DNA from: Thermoanaerobaculia bacterium
Lineage (GTDB): Bacteria > Acidobacteriota > Thermoanaerobaculia > Gp7-AA8
Direction of reading: 5' to 3'
Assembly (NCBI GenBank): GCA_035626775.1
Contig: DASPNA010000078.1
Span: 42,771-106,770 of the forward strand
Length of the DNA stretch: 64,000 nucleotides
Part shown: positions 10,461 to 61,427 of the stretch, piece after piece
How the letters are laid out: every line of letters begins with the position of its first letter
How positions within the stretch are numbered: position 1 is the first letter of the stretch
The notes under the pieces: generated by a model
Database searches by the model: none
What the model saw: the letters and a program-made list of their open reading frames with translations, nothing else
What the model was told of the DNA's origin: nothing
Program-made: the position numbers and the translations under genes

Positions 10461-10571
10461 GACCCCTCATCCGCCTTCGGCACCTTGTCCCCTCGCCGAG
10501 GGGAGAAGGCTACCCAGGTAGCCCTCGCCCCGCTTGCGGGGAGAGGGTGGCCAAAGGCCGGGTGAGGGGTC
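10461..10571. repeat. Palindromic element family 4 (GACCCCTCATCCG ... CGGGTGAGGGGTC terminal inverted repeats)
   Basis: Terminal inverted repeats GACCCCTCA/TGAGGGGTC, with internal hairpins CCCCTCGCCGAGGGG and CCCCGCTTGCGGGG. Related copies at 27237-27342 and 57204-57294. Confidence 0.7.
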
Positions 10572-10592
10572 GCTCTCAGCCCGTCGCTCCAG
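10569..10592. repeat. Half copy of palindromic element family 3; forms the 3' end of the CreD-like CDS
   Basis: gtcgctctcagcccgtcgctccag. On the minus strand it encodes ...SGATG plus the stop TGA of the CreD-like gene. Confidence 0.65.
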
Positions 10593-22127: not shown

Positions 22128-23123
22128 ATGCGACTTACGCTCAAGCTCACGTTCCTGGTGCTGCTCGCGACATCGCCACTCGCGGCGCAAACGAACTACA
22201 CGATCACTCCGGACAACGGTCCCACCTCAGGCGGCACACACGTCACCATCAAGGGCGACTTCGGCCAATGGCCGTATGGCGTGATCTTCGGCGGCGTCTC
22301 TGTGCCCGCGACGCGCGTCGATGAGCACACGTTGACCGCAGTCACGCCGCCGCACATGCCCGGCAAGGTGGAGGTCGTCATCTTCGAGTTCGACATCGGC
22401 ATCAACACCGATCTCACGTTCGACTACATCGGGCCGGTCCCGGATGACTACGCACGGTTGCTCCTGCCGGTATTCACGCCGCCGGTGCACGGCGCGTTCG
22501 GCTCGCTGTTCTTCAGCAATCTGCGCGTACTGAACTACGGAGGCGCGACAGCATCGATCTACGGGCTCGAAATGGTCTGCGCGCCGATCCTCTGCATCCC
22601 GTTCGAAGGTCCGTTCGACCTCGGCCCCGGCTCAGAATCGACGGACTTCGTCCCGAACGGCAATCCCGGCCGCTTCGTGTACGTGAAGAAGGATCAGGCC
22701 GTGGGGCTGGCGATGAATTTACGCGTGTACGACACGACGCGCGAAGCGCTCAACTTCGGCACCGAGATCCCGATCGTGCGCGAGGAGGAGATGCCGCTGA
22801 ACCGCGTCGTCTTCACGGGCGTCCCGACCGATCCGCGTTTTCGCAACACGCTGCGCATCTATTCGACGTTCCCATTCACGGCGATCGTGACGATCGGAAA
22901 TCGACCGCCGGTGCGCGTGCGGATGTCGGACACCAACGGCATTCACGATCCGTCGTACGCCCAGTTCGGCGACTTTCCGACCGACGGCAATCCAGTACGC
23001 GTGACGATCGACGCGGAGCTCGACTTCCAGACGCTGCTGCCGGTCGACGTACCGATCTGGGCGATGATCACGGTCACGAACAACGAAACGCAGATGATCT
23101 CGACGATCACGCCGCAACCGTGA
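22128..23123 (+). CDS. Secreted IPT/TIG-domain protein, paralog 2
   Basis: MRLTLKLTFLVLLATSPLAAQ...; tandem duplicate of 21118..22113. An alternative ATG at 22113 would overlap as TAATG. Confidence 0.8.
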   Translation: MRLTLKLTFLVLLATSPLAAQTNYTITPDNGPTSGGTHVTIKGDFGQWPYGVIFGGVSVPATRVDEHTLTAVTPPHMPGKVEVVIFEFDIGINTDLTFDYIGPVPDDYARLLLPVFTPPVHGAFGSLFFSNLRVLNYGGATASIYGLEMVCAPILCIPFEGPFDLGPGSESTDFVPNGNPGRFVYVKKDQAVGLAMNLRVYDTTREALNFGTEIPIVREEEMPLNRVVFTGVPTDPRFRNTLRIYSTFPFTAIVTIGNRPPVRVRMSDTNGIHDPSYAQFGDFPTDGNPVRVTIDAELDFQTLLPVDVPIWAMITVTNNETQMISTITPQP

Positions 23124-23220
23124 CGAGGGGTCCCTCGGGTTCCTCGGTTCCTCGGGTTCCTCGGTGGGATAGGTTGCCCAATCGCCCACCCCGAGGAACC
23201 CGAGGAACCCCGAGGAACCG
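23124..23220. repeat. Palindromic element family 1
   Basis: gaggggtccctcgggttcctcggttcctcgggttcctcgg ... ccgaggaacccgaggaaccccgaggaaccg, between convergent genes. Confidence 0.75.
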
Positions 23221-23224
23221 TTTT

Positions 23225-27236: not shown

Positions 27237-27342
27237 ACCCTCGCCCCGCTTGCGGGGAGAGGGTGGCGCGCAGCGCCGGGTGAGGGGGACCCCTCATCCG
27301 CCTGCGGCACCTTCTCCCCTCGCGGAGGGGAGAAGGCTACCT
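27237..27342. repeat. Palindromic element family 4, permuted or tandem-partial arrangement
   Basis: ccctcgccccgcttgcggggagagggtggc...ccgggtgaggggg acccctcatccgcctgcggcaccttctcccctcgcggaggggagaaggctac. Confidence 0.7.
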
Positions 27343-28571: not shown

Positions 28572-28637
28572 CTGGAGCGACGGGCTCTCAGCCCGTCGAG
28601 CCCTGCATTTCGACGGGCCGAGAGCCCGTCGCTCCAG
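28572..28637. repeat. Palindromic element family 3, full copy
   Basis: ctggagcgacgggctctcagcccgtcg agccctgcatttcga cgggccgagagcccgtcgctccag. Confidence 0.75.
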
Positions 28638-29779: not shown

Positions 29780-29815
29780 TGGTCCTGTCTCTCCAGTGCT
29801 ACATGCTTCGCGAGT

Positions 29816-29918
29816 GGAAATTGAAAATTGAAAATTGAAAATTGAAAAATCGGACTCCGGGTCGCGCGAGGCACCGACTTTCGTTTTTTCAATTTTCAAT
29901 TTTCAATTTTCAATTTCG
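29816..29918. repeat. AT-rich palindrome, (GAAAATT)x4 ... (CAATTTT)x4, family 5
   Basis: ggaaattgaaaattgaaaattgaaaattgaaaaatcgg ... ccgactttcgttttttcaattttcaattttcaattttcaatttcg. A stem of about 33 bp, between pilB and pilT. Confidence 0.8.
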
Positions 29919-31752: not shown

Positions 31753-32490
31753 TCAGCGCGGCAGCGGCGGCGGGTCACTGGCCGTCACGCCCTCGGTGAC
31801 TTTGTTGAGCGTCGCGGTGATGCTGCCGAACTTCACTTCGGTACGAATGCGCAGCGGCAGACGGCGCTCGTCATCGGAGTACCAGATGAACAGCTTCTCT
31901 TCGCGCTGCACGCCGGCGCTGGCCATCTGCGGCTCCACCAGCAGCGCGTTGAACGTGCCAAGCGGCGTCGTGATCTGCTCGCGCTTCACCACGTTGCCGT
32001 ACACGGTGTAGAGCTTGCCGCCGTCGATCAGTTTCAATTCATACGACTTCCCGGGTGCGAGCTCGAGCGTCCGGAAGTAATAGATGACGGAGATGGGATC
32101 GAAGATCGGACGGGGCACCGGCGTCTTGCGGATCTTCTTCCGCTTGCGAGACGCGACGCCGTCTTCGATGGTGATGGTCTCGCGCATCTTGTCGCCGCGC
32201 TCGTCGAGGCTCTTCACGATCTTGATGGTGGAAAAGTCTTCGCGCGCGACGGTGGTCTCGATCTCGTCCCGGATGCGGAAGAGGCGGCCCAGACCACCCC
32301 CGGACTTGGCCACGGAAGTGATGCGATAGTGCGCGTCGTCGTGCGGCGAGATGGTCATGCGCGCGGTACCGCCCGTGACCTTCATCCAGGTGACGGTGAA
32401 GTCGAGCGTCTCTCCTGCCTCGTACGTATCGTGGAGCGGACCGGCGATGGACGCGGAAACCGCGAAGAGAACCGCGAGCGCAAAAGTCAC
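31753..32490 (-). CDS. DUF3108-family protein
   Basis: Signal-peptide-like N-terminus and DUF3108-like size and composition. 4-nt overlap with the upstream GT9 gene. Confidence 0.65.
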   Translation of the reverse strand: MTFALAVLFAVSASIAGPLHDTYEAGETLDFTVTWMKVTGGTARMTISPHDDAHYRITSVAKSGGGLGRLFRIRDEIETTVAREDFSTIKIVKSLDERGDKMRETITIEDGVASRKRKKIRKTPVPRPIFDPISVIYYFRTLELAPGKSYELKLIDGGKLYTVYGNVVKREQITTPLGTFNALLVEPQMASAGVQREEKLFIWYSDDERRLPLRIRTEVKFGSITATLNKVTEGVTASDPPPLPR

Positions 32491-33407
32491 TCCGCGGTGA
32501 CCCTTCCCAGCATCGTCATCACCTCTTCAACACTTATCGAGTCCATCCATTTCGTGGTGGAAAAACGGTCGATGCAATGTTGCAGTTGGTGATACGGACC
32601 GTTGCGCCGTGGATTGGTCGGGCCGTAGAGGCCGATGACCTTCGTCCCGAGCGCGTCCGCGAGGTGCAGCGGGCCGGTGTCGCCGCCGATGACGACCTCT
32701 GCACTTTGGAGCAGACCTGCAAGCTCACGCAGGTTCGTCGACGGCGCGATACGAGCTCCGATCGCTTCCGCGAGCTCCCGTTCTCCCGGCCCCCACGCCG
32801 CGACCGCGCGCGGACCGATGCGCTTTGCGAGCTCGCGAAAACGCTCGACGGGCCACAGTTTGTTGGCCTTTCCGGCACCCGGGAGCAGGACGATGGAGTT
32901 TTCATAGCCAGGAACCGGAACCGCGAAATCGTCCCAATTCTGGAGCGACGGGCTCTCAGCCCGTCGGGTCTCGAGGTCGACCGGCTGAGAGCCCGTCGCT
33001 CCAGATGCGAGCTGCAGGTTTTGATCGATGACGTGCGACGCCGCATCGACACGTACGTGGCGGTTCGTGAACAGGAGCGCGGCTTTCTCGCGGATGGCGT
33101 GGCGATCGAATCCGTATCGCGTTTTCGCACCTGACAACCATCCGAGCGCCGCCGATTTGATCAGTCCCTGAAAGTCGACAGATGCATCGAAGCCGCGCGC
33201 GCTGCGAATCGCGCGAATGGCAGCTCGCGGTTCTTTCTTCATGCGCACCGGCAGCACCTCCACACCCGCGACGATCTCCACGAGCTCGCGATACGGCGCT
33301 TCGACGACCCACGTGACGTCCGCCGCGTTCTTGAGCGACACGACCGCGGGGATGGTGTGAATGACGTCGCCGAGTGCTGACAGACGAAGGACGAGCAGAC
33401 GGCTCAT
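32487..33407 (-). CDS. Glycosyltransferase family 9 (ADP-heptose:LPS heptosyltransferase-like)
   Basis: [22 protein letters not shown]...[24 protein letters not shown] (GT9 signature). ATGA overlap with hldC at 33404-33407. Contains an in-frame family-3 repeat. Confidence 0.8.
32940..33004. repeat. Palindromic element family 3, full copy embedded in-frame within the GT9 CDS
   Basis: ctggagcgacgggctctcagcccgtcg ggtctcgaggtcgac cggctgagagcccgtcgctccag. Translated on the minus strand as [21 protein letters not shown]. Confidence 0.75.
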
Positions 33408-33877
33408 CGCGCCCGCAATTTCTGGAGCACTGCGGTCGTCGAATGGTCCTTCGGGTCGCCGACGATTGCCACGCGTCCGCCATAGGACCGCACGATCTCG
33501 GCTTCCGGCACGGAGTCGGCCGTGTAGTCGGTGCCTTTGCACTGCACGTCGGGCCGCAACGTCTGCAGCAAGCGGCCGGGATTCTCCTCGCGAAAGATCG
33601 TGACGTACGCGACACCGCGAATCGCCGCAATGATCTCGGCGCGTTCGTCCTCCGGCATCACAGGCCGCCCCTCGCCTTTCAGCCTGCGCACCGATTCATC
33701 GCCGTTGACGCCGACCACGAGCACGTCCGCTTCGCGTGCCGCATCCTGCAGATAGCGGATGTGGCCGACGTGCAGCACATCGAAACAACCATTCGCGAAC
33801 GCGATCGATTTGCCGTTCGCACGCTCTTGCGCGAGCGCATCGACCAGCGCTTGCTCATCGAGGATCCGAGCGTTCAT
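33404..33877 (-). CDS. hldC: D-glycero-beta-D-manno-heptose 1-phosphate adenylyltransferase (RfaE domain II)
   Basis: [18 protein letters not shown], the cytidylyltransferase HxGH motif. Confidence 0.85.
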
Positions 33878-34890
33878 TCATTCAACTCTTCGTCGCGCTG
33901 AATCGCGTGCGCGAGCTCGTCGTTCGACACCGTTGCCGTCCCCATCTTCATCACCACGATCCCGCCCGCATAGTTCGCGAGCTTTGCCGCTTCCGCGAAC
34001 GACGCACCAGCCGCGAGTCCAAGCGTGAACGTGGCGATGACCGTATCTCCTGCGCCCGTGACATCGGCCACCTGATCGGTGCCCGACACCGGAATCAACA
34101 AAGGCGCACTCGCATCCCGCTCCAGCAACGCCATTCCTCGGCTCCCCCGAGTGATCAGCACCGCATCGCAATCGAGGCCCTGCTGCAGCTTGCGCGCGAC
34201 GCCGCCGACCTTCTCTTCCTCGCCGTTCCATAGCGATGTGCCCGCGGCGGCAGCGGCTTCCTCTTCGTTCGGCGTCGCCGCGGTCACGCCGCGATAGCTG
34301 AGCAGGTCGTAGCGCGAATCGAGCGTGACCGCTTTTCCGTCCGCGCGCGCCGTCAGCTCCGCGACCACGGACGGGCGCACGACCCCGTATCCGTAGTCGC
34401 TGACGAGCGCCGCGTGGCTGTTCGCGATCGCGTTGCGCAGGATGGCCGTGAAGTGTTGCGCTTCTTCGTCCGTCATGACGAACTTGTCTTCGATGTCGTA
34501 GCGCACGATCTGCTGCCGGCTCGCGTGCGGCATGCCGCCGAGGATGCGTACTTTGGTCGGCGTGTCGTAGCGGTCGGTGCGCTGGATGCCGTCGCACGAG
34601 ATGCCGTTCGACGAGAGATGCGCGACGAGCGTGTGCGCCGCGGAATCATTGCCGAGCACCGACACCGGCACCGGCAATGCGCCGAGGGCGTGGATGTTGT
34701 TGATGGCGTTGCCGGCGCCGCCGAGGAGGATGTCGTCGCGGTACTGGCGGAGGATGAGCACCGGCGCCTCGCGCGAGATGCGCTTCGGCGTGCCGTAGAT
34801 GAAACGGTCCGCTACGATGTCGCCGTAGACGACGACCAGCTTCCCCTTCATCGCTTCCGTGAGCTGCAACAGGCGGGAGCGGCTGAACAC
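33874..34890 (-). CDS. hldA: D-glycero-beta-D-manno-heptose-7-phosphate kinase (RfaE domain I, PfkB family)
   Basis: PfkB kinase motifs (GGAGNA..., DVTGAGDT). 4-nt overlap with hldC. Confidence 0.85.
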
Positions 34891-34906: not shown

Positions 34907-35095
34907 ATGACTGACGAACGGCGCTTGATCGAAGGTGTGGACTTTTACCGCGAGGGACCGTACGTCGTATTCACGGAGAAGTATCTGCGCGAGCGCGGAT
35001 ACTGTTGCGAGTCAGGCTGCCGGCATTGTCCGTATGGGTTCAGCAAGGACCAGCGCAGTGACGTGCCGTGGGAACGCCGCCGTCCCGGCGGCTGA
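34907..35095 (+). CDS. Small Cys-rich protein (DUF5522-like)
   Basis: MTDERRLIEGVDFYREGPYVVFTEKYLRERGYCCESGCRHCPYGF. Confidence 0.5.
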   Translation: MTDERRLIEGVDFYREGPYVVFTEKYLRERGYCCESGCRHCPYGFSKDQRSDVPWERRRPGG

Positions 35096-35145
35096 GCGGG
35101 CGGCGTCTCGCCGCCGTCCCCCTCCCGCGGCGAGACGCCGCGTGC

Positions 35146-35622
35146 TCAGCCGGCGGGGACGCCGGCGTTCCGCAGGTCGGCTTCGCGTAGTTCCACCTTC
35201 TCGTCGCTCGTGAGCACGTTCTCGACGTCGATCAGCAGATAGACCTCTTCGCCGAACGGAATCACCGCGATGAGCAACTCGCCGCGGATGCCGCGAATGA
35301 GCGGCGGCGGCGGGAGGAGCGTGTCGGGCCCCACGTTCACGATGCGCCGCACTTCATCGACTTTCAGGCCGATCACGCCGGCGCTGGTGTGCGTGATCAG
35401 CACCAGCGGCTCGGGCTTGGACTCGAGCTTCGGATAAAGACGCTGGCGCAGGTCGATGATCGGAATCACTTCGTTGCGCAGCACGACGATGCCTTCGATG
35501 AACGCGGGCGCGGTCGGTACCGTGGTCGAGCCGGCGTACGGCACGATCTGCCGCACGGCCATGATGTCGAGCACGAACGTCTCCGGCCCGACGCGGAACG
35601 TGATCATGCGCAGGTCGGCCAT
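35146..35622 (-). CDS. cheW: Chemotaxis coupling protein
   Basis: 158 aa CheW-like domain (…FRVGPETFVLDIMAVRQIV…). Confidence 0.85.
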   Translation of the reverse strand: MADLRMITFRVGPETFVLDIMAVRQIVPYAGSTTVPTAPAFIEGIVVLRNEVIPIIDLRQRLYPKLESKPEPLVLITHTSAGVIGLKVDEVRRIVNVGPDTLLPPPPLIRGIRGELLIAVIPFGEEVYLLIDVENVLTSDEKVELREADLRNAGVPAG

Positions 35623-41742: not shown

Positions 41743-41796
41743 CGTCACGATTTGGAGTGCGGCAACGCCTGCTGGTGCCGCACTCCAAAACCCGCC

Positions 41797-48224: not shown

Positions 48225-49280
48225 TCAGGCGATCCGAGAACGAGCCTCGACACGCCGCGGATCGCCGGCGTTGCCTTTTTGTAACCCCGCGAACGCGATC
48301 ATGGCCGCGTTGTCGGTGCAATAGCGCTTCTCCGGCAGGCGCACCACCACGCCGCGATGCTCGCCCCACGCGAGCATCCGCTCGCGGATGACTCCGTTGG
48401 CCGCCACACCGCCTGCAAGCGCCACCGCTTCGGGCTTCTCCCCTTCCAACCGCTGCCATATCGAATCGAGGCGATCGAAGAGTTGCGCGACGAGCGCTTC
48501 CTGAAAGGTCGCGCAGAAATCCTGGAACAACGGGCTCTCGGCCCATTCCGGATTTTCGTCGGGCTGAGAGCCCGTCGTTCCAGCCTGGATGGCGTGCTCG
48601 CGCGCGAGCCGGATCGCACCCGCTTTCAGGCCGCTATACGAAAAGTCCAACGACTCGTCGCGGAACTGCGGCACGACGAACGGGAACCGCTTCGCATCGA
48701 CCTTGCCGGCGCGTCCGTGTTTTTCGATCTCCGGCCCTCCGGGATACGGCAGGCCAATGAACTTCGCGACTTTGTCGAAGGTCTCGCCGATCGCATCATC
48801 GCGCGTGCGATTGAGCTGGCGGATGTCGCTGCCGCGCACGTCGTAGATCGCGGAGTGGCCACCGGAGATCACGAGCGAGAGAAAGCGCGCCGGCAACGGC
48901 AGCGCCGCTCCTTCGCGTTGCAGAAAAGGCGAGTAGATGTGACCTTCGAGATGATTGACGGGCATCAGCGGAATGCCCAATCCGTACGCGAGTCCCTGCG
49001 CGCCGGCCACGCCGACGAGCAACGCGCCGATCAATCCCGGACCCGACGTCACCGCAATCGAGTCGACGTCACTCCATTGCGCATTCGCGTCACCAAGCGC
49101 GCGCTCGACGAGCGGAAACAGATGCTGCAGATGCTCGCGCGACGCGATCTCCGGCACCACGCCGCCGAACGGCTGATGCCGCGCGATCTGCGAGTTGATC
49201 AGGTTCACGCGCACGTTCCCGTCGCGCTCGAGCAGAGCGACGGAAGTCTCGTCGCAGGACGTTTCGATTCCGAGGATCAC
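48225..49280 (-). CDS. tsaD: tRNA N6-adenosine threonylcarbamoyltransferase
   Basis: MILGIETSCDETSVAL..., HLEGH and GGVAAN motifs. Confidence 0.9.
   Translation of the reverse strand: MILGIETSCDETSVALLERDGNVRVNLINSQIARHQPFGGVVPEIASREHLQHLFPLVERALGDANAQWSDVDSIAVTSGPGLIGALLVGVAGAQGLAYGLGIPLMPVNHLEGHIYSPFLQREGAALPLPARFLSLVISGGHSAIYDVRGSDIRQLNRTRDDAIGETFDKVAKFIGLPYPGGPEIEKHGRAGKVDAKRFPFVVPQFRDESLDFSYSGLKAGAIRLAREHAIQAGTTGSQPDENPEWAESPLFQDFCATFQEALVAQLFDRLDSIWQRLEGEKPEAVALAGGVAANGVIRERMLAWGEHRGVVVRLPEKRYCTDNAAMIAFAGLQKGNAGDPRRVEARSRIA
48557..48583. repeat. Half copy of palindromic element family 3, in-frame inside tsaD
   Basis: cgtcgggctgagagcccgtcgttccag, translated as ...TTGSQPDENPEWAESPLFQ... 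Confidence 0.65.
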
Positions 49281-49328
49281 TCGCGCGGTAACGCGCGTCG
49301 GGCGGCGGAACGTTCCCGGCGCCGGGCG

Positions 49329-49477
49329 CAGAGTCTCAGAGTCTCAGAGTCTCAGAGGGTCGGTGGGACTCGCCGTTTTCAGAGCGGAGCAATCCGCGTT
49401 ACCGGAAATTCAGAGAAACGCCCGTCCCCACGACCCTCTGAGACTCTGAGACTCTGAGACTCTGAGACTCTGAGACT
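49329..49477. repeat. Palindromic element family 2, large copy
   Basis: (cagagtct)x3-4 gagggtcggtgggac ... gtccccacgaccctc (tgagactc)x4. Confidence 0.8.
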
Positions 49478-49533
49478 TCACGCAACGATCCGCACGCGTC
49501 CATTCGCGCGACGCTCCGAGCACGCGCCCTATA

Positions 49534-60299: not shown

Positions 60300-60325
60300 A
60301 ATCGGCGCGGTATATCACACGGAGG

Positions 60326-60423
60326 GAGTTCCTCGGGTTCCTCGGTTCCTCGGAGGGGAACGCGATGTGATGCTCCTCCCCTCCGAGGGACCCGAGGTAC
60401 TCCGAGGAACCCGAGGAACTCAC
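60326..60423. repeat. Palindromic element family 1
   Basis: gagttcctcgggttcctcggttcctcggaggggaa ... ccctccgagggacccgaggtactccgaggaacccgaggaactc. Confidence 0.75.
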
Positions 60424-61427
60424 TCGCGCGGCGTCACGTCCTTCCAACGAAAGCCTTCGCGCGCAAACAGGAACAAGCCCGTCGTCAGCACCGGCAGCGT
60501 TCCGATGACGTGAAACAGGACCGCGACGGCGACGCTCGCATCGATGCTGAACTGATAGAAGCGCGTGAGCACGAGCTGACACGCTTTGTGGAATCCGCCG
60601 ATCCCGCCCGGCGTCGGAATGGCCAGCCCCACCGTGGTCACGCCGGTGACGAAGAAGCTCGCGTCATACGGCAACGGCTGGTGAACGGCTTTCGTCGCGA
60701 ACCAGAACTGCGATGTAAGACAGAGCCACACACCCATCGTGCAAAGCACGACCTTCGCGAAGACGCGCCGGTTCTGCGTGATCTTCAGCGTCTCGGTGAA
60801 AGTGTCGAAGAAGTGCATCCAGGCGTTGCGGAAACGCTCGGGCAATAGCCGGCCGAGTTTCTCGTGCAGCCGCCGGACGCTCTCGCGAAAGAAGCTCAGG
60901 CTGATCATGAGGATCGCCAGCGCGACGAGCAACACCGCCGACGCGATGGCACCCGCGCGCACGATGTAGAACCACGCCGCCGTGGAAGCGTCATGCGAGA
61001 ACTCGTTCCAGCGCAGGATGGCGAAGAAAACGAACATCGTCAGGATGCTCGTGAGGTCGAGCACGCGCTCGGTCAGCACGGTACCGAGTGCGCCGGAGAA
61101 ACGATGCGATGTGCGCCGCGCGAGCAGCGCCGGCCGCGCGACATCGGACGCGCGAATGGGCAGGATGATCGAGAACATGTAGCCGACCGTGTTCGCGAAA
61201 AACGTCGCGAAGAACGGCGGAGGGTCATCGGGATCGAGGATGGTCCGCCACCGCAAGGTGCGCAGCAGCAGCGCCGTGGCGTTCGCGATGAAGCCGACGA
61301 TCACCCAGCCCCAGGAAGCGGCGGCGAGGATGCGTCCAACCTGCTGGAGGTCGGCGTTCCGCAGGAAAAGCCAGAGGAAGAAGACCGTCAGCGCCGCAAT
61401 GAACGCGATCTGTAGAATGCGCTTCAA
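60420..61427 (-). CDS. Lysylphosphatidylglycerol-synthase-TM-domain-like (UPF0104) membrane protein
   Basis: Eight TM helices, with a ...PTPGGIGGFH... block. Confidence 0.7.
   Translation of the reverse strand: MKRILQIAFIAALTVFFLWLFLRNADLQQVGRILAAASWGWVIVGFIANATALLLRTLRWRTILDPDDPPPFFATFFANTVGYMFSIILPIRASDVARPALLARRTSHRFSGALGTVLTERVLDLTSILTMFVFFAILRWNEFSHDASTAAWFYIVRAGAIASAVLLVALAILMISLSFFRESVRRLHEKLGRLLPERFRNAWMHFFDTFTETLKITQNRRVFAKVVLCTMGVWLCLTSQFWFATKAVHQPLPYDASFFVTGVTTVGLAIPTPGGIGGFHKACQLVLTRFYQFSIDASVAVAVLFHVIGTLPVLTTGLFLFAREGFRWKDVTPRE

Follow-up and report, generated by a model that had tools for sequence, protein, structure and literature searches.

The window analysed here is a stretch of 64,000 nt from the metagenome-assembled genome (MAG) of a Thermoanaerobaculia bacterium. 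On its minus strand, at positions 32487-33407, lies the gene for a glycosyltransferase family 9 (GT9) protein, a WaaC-like ADP-heptose:lipopolysaccharide heptosyltransferase of 306 residues, and inside this gene positions 32940-33004 hold a palindromic repeat that is translated in frame. The repeat belongs to a dispersed family, called family A here, with the anatomy of repetitive extragenic palindromes (REPs). The GT9 protein is identical to P0001, whose source label reads 'MAG TPA: glycosyltransferase family 9 protein [Thermoanaerobaculia bacterium]', and the identical protein is recorded on two contigs. Its ATG overlaps the stop codon of the upstream cytidylyltransferase gene. The palindrome lies wholly inside the minus-strand open reading frame (ORF) 32487-33542, of which 32487-33407 is the gene proper.

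The repeat is a near-perfect palindrome formed by two head-to-head arms of 27 nt, CTGGAGCGACGGGCTCTCAGCCCGTCG at 32940-32966 and CGACCGGCTGAGAGCCCGTCGCTCCAG at 32978-33004, around the 11-nt spacer GGTCTCGAGGT at 32967-32977. These letters confirm the palindrome reported by an earlier analysis of the bare DNA, referred to below as the sequence-only reading. The single mismatch between the arms is a synonymous Pro codon. As RNA, the doublet has a folding energy of -63.6 kcal/mol (z = -9.0). Together with base 33005 the 65 nt make up 66 nt, or 22 codons, corresponding to S135-Q156 of the protein. On either strand, the doublet can be read without stops in two of its three frames, and since the element is a palindrome, both of its orientations encode nearly identical peptides. 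The frame SGATGSQP...RRAESPSLQ is used in GT9, in the TsaD protein encoded elsewhere in the window and in the loci L001, L016 and L025; it is the most linker-like frame of the element, with small, polar and Pro/Gly-rich residues. No Rfam family was matched anywhere in the window at gathering thresholds. A promoter and terminator scan near 32940-33004 revealed no terminator-like T-run after the hairpin, so an internal intrinsic terminator was rejected.

Palindromes and repeats can mislead short-read assemblers, and the source of the sequence is a MAG; the in-frame palindrome might in that case reflect an assembly chimera, a pseudogene or two genes split at the repeat. The evidence leaves this explanation with hardly any probability. 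One PF01075 match (E 1.2e-40) runs across the insert, and the protein aligns to E. coli WaaC (2GT1/6DFE, E 2.5e-26). The AlphaFold (AF2) model built from 31 orthologs has a predicted local distance difference test score (pLDDT) of 88 and a template modelling (TM) score of 0.84 to WaaC 2H1H (2h1h_A), showing one confident fold across the site. In addition, the frame and the flanking conserved motifs are as in the orthologs, the operon synteny is conserved, the identical 306-residue protein comes from 2 contigs and several sources, and the same architecture is found in many independent metagenomes. Two genes, a pseudogene and an assembly chimera were rejected on the Pfam span, the AF2 fold, the ortholog motifs and the duplicate record. 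The palindrome is therefore translated within a single intact GT9 gene, as the sequence-only reading had claimed, and the two-gene arrangement that would have undone its claim is not what is found.

Within the model, the pLDDT falls to 62-70 in the 10-residue blocks covering residues 141-160, where most of the insert lies; apart from this, it drops in one short C-terminal block only. The insert lies between helix 126-138, at the end of the N-terminal Rossmann-like domain, and strand 172-175, at the start of the C-terminal domain. As modelled, the insert site is the inter-domain linker of GT9. The gene is part of a conserved operon (31753-34890 in the window, also present in L111-L113) that encodes a PfkB-type heptose kinase, a cytidylyltransferase-like adenylyltransferase (a split HldE), GT9 and a DUF3108 protein. 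The operon is followed by pilB-pilT-pilC, and neighbouring genes overlap by 4 nt.

The palindrome is one member of a dispersed family. A search with the 27-mer, allowing up to 3 mismatches, found 7 arms in the window compared with 0 in 100 dinucleotide shuffles. The arms pair as doublets at 15733-15797, 28572-28637, 32940-33004 and 48522-48583, the last of which is degraded, with one arm only inside the 3-mismatch limit. The first two are the intergenic copies already listed by the sequence-only reading. The doublet at 15733-15797 exactly fills the gap between the convergent ORFs 14719-15732 (+) and 15800-17683 (-). That at 28572-28637 separates the stop of pilT (28652) from the start of pilC (28554), two minus-strand genes, in a region of synteny with L112 and L113. 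Both copies abut gene ends, the typical position of REPs. Two copies were absent from that reading, namely the doublet at 48522-48583 in tsaD and a truncated arm (TCGCTCTCAGCCCGTCGCTCCAG) at 10570-10592, which abuts a GTAG-tagged palindrome of another family at 10519-10569. No strand is assigned to any of these palindromic features.

Outside the window, a degenerate arm pattern identified at least 30 further loci in three Thermoanaerobaculia MAGs, a census of pattern matches in MAG contigs and not a whole-genome count. Among the matches listed, nearly all are in MAG SMAG_U3424 and a few in the two others. About 80% of the sampled loci have no coding-type ORF spanning the element. The arms occur as singles, head-to-head doublets, tail-to-tail pairs (L009, L013, L019 and L021) and clusters, and an alternating arm cluster is seen at L014 5827-6059. 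The doublets frequently join two arm variants, for example GGAG-CGACGGGCTCTCAGCCCGTCG with GGAG-TGCCGGGCTCTCAGCCCGGCA. The SMAG_U3424 loci L014 5827-6059, L012 3786-3846 and L021 73-262 contain alternating clusters that resemble bacterial interspersed mosaic elements (BIMEs), as well as a hetero-doublet in which an arm with a GGGCTTCAGCCC core is joined to a family-A arm. The arms of this MAG bear an extra conserved pyrimidine flank (CTCTCTCTGGAG), which the copies in the window lack.

Each arm is itself a hairpin, CGACGGGCT-CTC-AGCCCGTCG, with a 9-bp stem and a 3-nt loop. Among 74 arms gathered by a pattern in which the four outer positions of the stem were unconstrained, these positions occur as ten fully complementary variants. 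Over the 69 distinct arms, 98.4% of the cells of the 9-bp stem are paired, and double-sided stem changes number 47 compared with 10.7 in shuffles, the observed value being reached in 0 of 500 shuffles. When the register was slid as a control, the stem pairing fell to 16-40%. The tag upstream of the stem on the 5' side is (C)TGGAG, and columns 8-12 are at least 90% conserved. The arms are near-identical between doublets, whereas the spacers of 8-15 nt are unrelated. Therefore, the single hairpin with its tag is the conserved and probably the copied unit. Apart from its tag, the palindrome is a REP/BIME-type repeat in anatomy by the definition given in PMC3733652.

In free-living bacteria such as Opitutus terrae, Thauera, Xanthomonas and Stenotrophomonas, intragenic GTAG/CGTC REPs have been described (Di Nocera, De Gregorio & Rocco 2013, PMC3733652), and the supplement of that study names Opitutus terrae 70 times. 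The in-frame copies are mostly dimers encoding 20-30 residues, different REPs are found at about one recB site in two Xanthomonas species, and the copies were suggested to be neutral in 'flexible linkers or loops' (PMC3733652). The statement of the sequence-only reading that nothing comparable is known for this kind of genome is thus mistaken in substance. Similar to these REPs, family A consists of short hairpins (20-40 nt) that bear a conserved tag, left unpaired, at one end, arranged mainly as head-to-head dimers and in clusters and abutting 3' gene ends, with a minority in frame. It differs from them in its host, of the phylum Acidobacteriota and the class Thermoanaerobaculia, which lie outside that survey; a search of the literature for such repeats in either taxon found no report. 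The tag of family A is one base from GTAG, and a related family with a GTAG tag, beginning GTAGG, sits at the same GT9 site in L051. Furthermore, the intragenic share seems high here, at about 20% of the sampled loci, and the turnover at one site is much larger, with at least seven families in about half of 113 orthologs.

The sequence-only reading had likened the palindrome to the Rickettsia palindromic elements (RPEs), and in behaviour the likeness is sound. Both are palindromic repeats found between genes and in frame in unrelated housekeeping genes, where the added peptide is compatible with the fold (PMC10969869, PMC3184786). However, RPEs are about 100-150 bp long, AT-rich and limited to obligate intracellular Rickettsia, with a conserved peptide of 30-50 residues per family (Ogata et al. 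2000, through PMC10969869 and PMC3184786), whereas the present element has a GC-rich arm of 27 nt, a doublet of 65 nt, a free-living soil host and an unrelated sequence. Membership of RPE-1 to RPE-10 was rejected by size, composition, host and sequence, the behaviour alone being shared; the element itself is REP-like.

Family A shares a high copy number and a mostly extragenic location with the REPINs, the REP doublets associated with REP-associated tyrosine transposases (RAYTs) (Bertels & Rainey 2011; PMC3116915, PMC3337134). The replicating unit of a REPIN is considered to be the entire doublet, and REPINs are linked to a RAYT gene that is present in single copy and has REPs on its flanks (PMC3116915, PMC3337134), whereas the spacers of different doublets are unrelated here and hetero-doublets are common. 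The BIMEs of E. coli, which are mosaics of the REP variants Y and Z, likewise show two REP variants alternating in pairs or clusters at gene ends. They are strictly extragenic and have binding data for gyrase, integration host factor (IHF) and Pol I, whereas family A also has copies inside genes. Bacterial MITEs, or miniature inverted-repeat transposable elements, such as ERIC, BOX, Correia, the Coxiella QMITE and those of Anabaena, are also small non-autonomous repeats that sometimes extend or interrupt ORFs in frame (PMC10969869, PMC3184786, PMC5896051), and in-frame MITEs have been reviewed (PMC10969869, PMC3184786). MITEs have terminal inverted repeats derived from insertion sequences (ISs), show target-site duplications and are usually longer than 100 bp. 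A MITE was rejected for the present element: no direct repeat flanks the filled sites of GT9 or tsaD by comparison with empty ones, no IS relationship was seen, and the whole element is a hairpin without terminal inverted repeats and a core.

A second host gene is tsaD (48225-49280, minus strand, 5' end approximate), an essential gene of tRNA-t6A formation, encoding 351 residues identical to P0121. The degraded family-A doublet at 48522-48583 is in frame, reads AGTTGSQPDENPEWAESPLFQ and uses the same element frame as in GT9. The ORF with the insert matches PF00814 (E 5e-81). In 94 of the 101 parsable tsaD orthologs the corresponding segment has a constant length of 26 residues (...IRVDGDAQALADFCA), compared with 38 residues in the window (...IQAGTTGSQPDENPEWAESPLFQDFCA). 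The 93%-identical relative L114 has one arm only (...IQSGTTGSQPVEGPLADFCA), and the relatives L115 and L116 (87%) are empty. Against Salmonella TsaD (3ZET_B), the segment of the window appears as an extra loop of about 16 residues. Judged from these alignments, tsaD is the cleanest contrast between filled and empty sites, and its copy, being more decayed than the GT9 copy, is the older of the two.

The share of intragenic copies was assessed over about 39 family-A loci by asking for a stop-free frame across the element, coding-type GC content at third codon positions (GC3) on both flanks, and then a Pfam match. In-frame copies inside Pfam-confirmed genes were found at 8 of these sampled loci (about 20%). 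Besides GT9 and tsaD, the host genes encode an aldolase-II/SDR fusion, with the element exactly between both domains, a STAND NTPase/BTAD protein, with the element between NB-ARC and TPR, YfhO, a DUF3857-transglutaminase, a ParA-like ATPase and a BlaR1-type M56 peptidase. In a genome made up largely of coding sequence, random neutral insertion would put most copies inside genes. If insertion is followed by purifying selection, the pattern to be expected is the one found here: an intragenic share of about 20%, in which every copy is in frame and most lie between domains or within loops.

In the alignment of 31 GT9 orthologs, the only variable region is that between 'QNLQLA' and 'NW..FP', which ranges from 7 to about 45 residues. 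The three closest sequences, those of the window, L031 and L111, share identical boundaries (CTC GCN before and AAY TGG after the linker), and their linkers differ. The linker of the window consists of 66 nt of family A. In L031/P0002 (85% identity) it is also 66 nt and is made of another palindrome, TGGAGTGCGGCAGC...GCGGTGGCCGCAGCCACCGCACTCCA, read as YGVRQRQLPLSNAVAAATALHM, and in L111/P0003 (84% identity) it is 33 unstructured nt read as RAFANEGSGRA (11 aa). The net gain of GT9 is therefore 11 residues over P0003 and 15 residues over the shortest linkers. The sequence-only reading had expected an insertion of about 22 residues in an ortholog alignment. A lineage-specific stretch is indeed present by comparison with the 11-aa linker of P0003 and the other palindrome of P0002, whereas a clean gain of 22 residues is not. 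A simple insertion of 22 residues was dropped in favour of the replacement of an earlier linker or element, which is what the event looks like from the identical boundaries in the three closest sequences.

The GT9 linker is recurrently occupied by elements of different families. In the metagenomic DNA of the orthologs, strong palindromes are found at the linker in about 11 of 31 loci. Variants of family A occur in L036 and additionally in L112 and L113, families with the GGGCTTCAGCCC core in L063 and in L051 (with the canonical GTAG start), the TGGAGTGCGG family in L031, L034 and L073 and additionally in L061/L062, the GTCATCCCGAGCG family in L042 and L084, the CCCTCTCCCC family in L033, and further palindromes in L067 and L083. 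At the protein level, 56 of 113 GT9 orthologs have repeat-derived linker peptides of at least seven families (A 9, B 21, C 6, D 4, E 8, F 1, G 1 and long unclassified 6); these classes are based on regular expressions, and decayed elements may be among the linkers scored as 'empty'. Placed on a neighbour-joining tree of the masked proteins, drawn without support values, the classes imply many gains and losses, with a minimum of 35 state changes. In this tree P0001 falls within a set of family-B and 'empty' sequences, apart from a family-A clade of P0058, P0077, P0104 and P0111. Half-elements such as DTKAVAAATALQ and AALSDRRAESPPL are common in the linkers, a sign that the elements decay by deletion. 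Dispersed intergenic repeats of families A, B, C and E are also present in the collected loci. In the 21-kb syntenic loci L112 and L113 of distant relatives, no family-A copy was found besides the one in GT9, which is degenerate. The scale of this multi-family turnover at one linker has apparently not been described before, and it is possibly the sole new aspect of the system.

The linker is also distinguished by its predicted structure, at the extreme only. The minimum free energy (MFE) of a 90-nt segment is below -60 kcal/mol at the linker in 8 of 37 GT9 genes, and the lowest 90-nt MFE outside the linker is -60.8 kcal/mol, in one sequence held as two loci (L053/L089). With a cut-off of -45 or -50 kcal/mol the linker could not be told apart from other parts of these GC-rich genes, and the tail below -60 alone set it apart. 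As a side observation, the 11-aa 'empty' linkers of P0005-P0017 (RAVAPSGSREA and others) were compared with NAVAAATAPEP of P0017, and they may have arisen by decay from the right half of the family-B element (KAVAAATALQ). In that case a truly native linker would be almost absent from the clade.

The repeated use of one linker raises the question of a role for the nucleic acid itself, in which the hairpin would be retained for a function in DNA or RNA. It may cause ribosome pausing at the boundary of the two Rossmann-like domains and so aid co-translational folding, it may act in the stability or processing of the mRNA of the hldE-like/GT9/DUF3108 operon, or it may bind a protein such as gyrase or IHF, like the REPs and BIMEs of E. 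coli. Unrelated palindrome families meet at exactly this linker in about half of the orthologs, compensatory changes maintain the stem, L036 keeps a perfect palindrome at only 70% identity, and the stability of -63.6 kcal/mol is very high. However, about half of the orthologs, including the relative with 84% identity, have no hairpin, and many retain half-deleted remnants, which fits neutral decay and not maintenance. The covariation is family-wide and equal in intergenic copies, neither a T-run or terminator signature nor an Rfam family was found, and the other intragenic copies are in unrelated proteins at unrelated positions. Di Nocera et al. likewise read their copies as neutral, in 'flexible linkers or loops' (PMC3733652). 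We therefore consider a nucleic-acid role very unlikely.

Active targeting is possible as well, though we do not favour it. Here, new REPs would enter either where a hairpin already stands, beside it or in its place, or where the sequence is like their own end, and the GT9 linker would be a landing pad that perpetuates itself. AAC TGG AGC GAC, the native N-W-S-D codons, resembles the element end CTGGAGCGAC, but only some orthologs (L032, L042 and L051) have TGGAGCG in the W-S codons, whereas L111 and L031 have TGG TCC. The linkers of the window (family A) and L031 (family B) have identical boundaries and an equal length of 66 nt, and families A and B share the ends TGGAG(C/T)G...C(G/A)CTCCA; however, families C and D occupy the GT9 site without a GGAG end. 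Hetero-doublets are common (A+A', A+E in L012, and C+A at 10519-10592 in the window), and the single tsaD arm of the 93% relative matches the doublet of the window, with homologous spacer starts. The spacers are otherwise unrelated, so the arms seem to be added singly at a fixed distance of 8-15 nt. REPs are known as insertion targets of ISs (PMC3733652), but no transposase or cleavage site was identified for family A, and the same pattern could result from the survival of elements in whichever loop of a small enzyme is most permissive.

A more elaborate version of targeting is doubtful. According to it, the GT9 linker is rewritten in cassette fashion by selfish hairpins: a resident REP draws the next one from whichever GGAG- or GTAG-tagged family is active, and the old arms are deleted, a process possibly reinforced by the benefit of an mRNA hairpin at the domain boundary. 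If true, this would be REP-targets-REP homing inside a coding sequence, an undescribed mechanism of recurrent, site-specific linker turnover.

Based on the evidence from GT9, tsaD and the sampled loci, we propose with good confidence that a REP-like element was inserted, survived only where frame and fold tolerated it, and then underwent decay and replacement. Family A is present in many copies across this and related Thermoanaerobaculia genomes, mostly just outside genes. One copy would then have reached the DNA coding for the inter-domain linker of GT9, the likeliest route being insertion beside, or replacement of, an older palindrome already there. This copy would have survived because two of the three frames were open, the 66 nt kept the downstream frame, and the peptide of the frame used is small, polar and Gly/Ser/Pro-rich, in a surface linker that would tolerate any sequence. 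The same event would have taken place earlier in tsaD. The anatomy suggests mobilisation by a RAYT or IS200-like single-strand transposase, or by hairpin-driven template switching. New REPs may prefer sites that already hold a REP, and the encoded peptide is presumably neutral. The linker stretch of GT9 is, by comparison with the orthologs, lineage-specific.

Several observations weigh against this proposal, in addition to the pattern-based census and the unsupported tree mentioned above. The tag is GGAG and not the canonical GTAG (or CGTC), so family A falls outside a strict definition of REPs by their tag. Both GT9 and TsaD lack residues of the native linker, showing that the insertion was not clean; therefore, either a deletion followed or a replacement mechanism acted. 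A scan for RAYT-type motifs (Y..NP and HUH) over 519 kb of collected sequence found none, which says little since RAYTs are single-copy, and in L028 ordinary genes account for the ORFs that lie between REPs. Filled and empty sites in GT9 or tsaD, when compared, show no target-site duplication. As neither a transposase nor such a duplication was found, the mechanism of mobilisation is one that we infer. In addition, family-A peptides occupy the same GT9 site in the same frame in the distant orthologs P0058, P0077, P0104 and P0111 (64-70% identity), and the palindrome of L036 (70% identity) is still perfect over 88 nt. Tolerance alone does not account for these distant copies, which hint at targeting, gene conversion or selection on the hairpin. 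Insertion with survival by tolerance is nevertheless the reading we prefer.

Other palindromes were observed in the window. Three intergenic families consist of tandem arrays of 8-9-mers facing their own reverse complement, (GAGTCTCA)n at 12535-12627 and 49295-49514, (GTTCCTCGG)n at 11862-11942, 23116-23222 and 60322-60425, and (AAATTGAAA)n at 29815-29917. This array architecture is unusual and unlike the REP-like hairpins. A palindrome with 31-nt arms (CCCGGCGGCTGAGCGGGCGGCGTCTCGCCGC and its reverse complement) lies at 35084-35157, upstream of the hldE-like kinase gene, and its core resembles the GT9-linker element of L083. No coding-type spanning frame was found for the three array families or for 35084-35157. 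Composite palindromes with a GTAG tag (GTAGCCCTCGCCCCGCTTGCGGGGAGAGGGTGGCC...GGCCGGGTGAGGGG) are present at 10519-10592 and about 27254-27320, one of them abutting the truncated family-A arm, and such composites are the source of the 'PHPSPLPGGERG'-type peptides in other GT9 orthologs. A single hairpin, TTTGGAGTGCGGCAACGCC...GGTGCCGCACTCCAAA, at 41751-41790 is of the 'B' superfamily, which fills the GT9 linker in the closest relatives (P0002 and P0004) and not in the window.

Taken as a whole, family A shows that 'selfish palindromes inside proteins', the phenomenon of the Rickettsia type, also occur in a soil lineage that is free-living, GC-rich and uncultured, the Thermoanaerobaculia of the Acidobacteriota, and that they reach an essential gene, tsaD, besides envelope genes. 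Through low-complexity segments of the type 'SGATGSQP / RRAESPSLQ / KAVAAATALQ / PHPSPLPGGERG', such inserts make protein sequences in metagenomes look more novel than they are. They also mark permissive linkers that are usable for protein engineering and serve as presence/absence characters for dating lineages. The GT9 linker in particular is a natural data set on how such linkers evolve, either by random REP insertion and a selective filter or by homing to existing hairpins.

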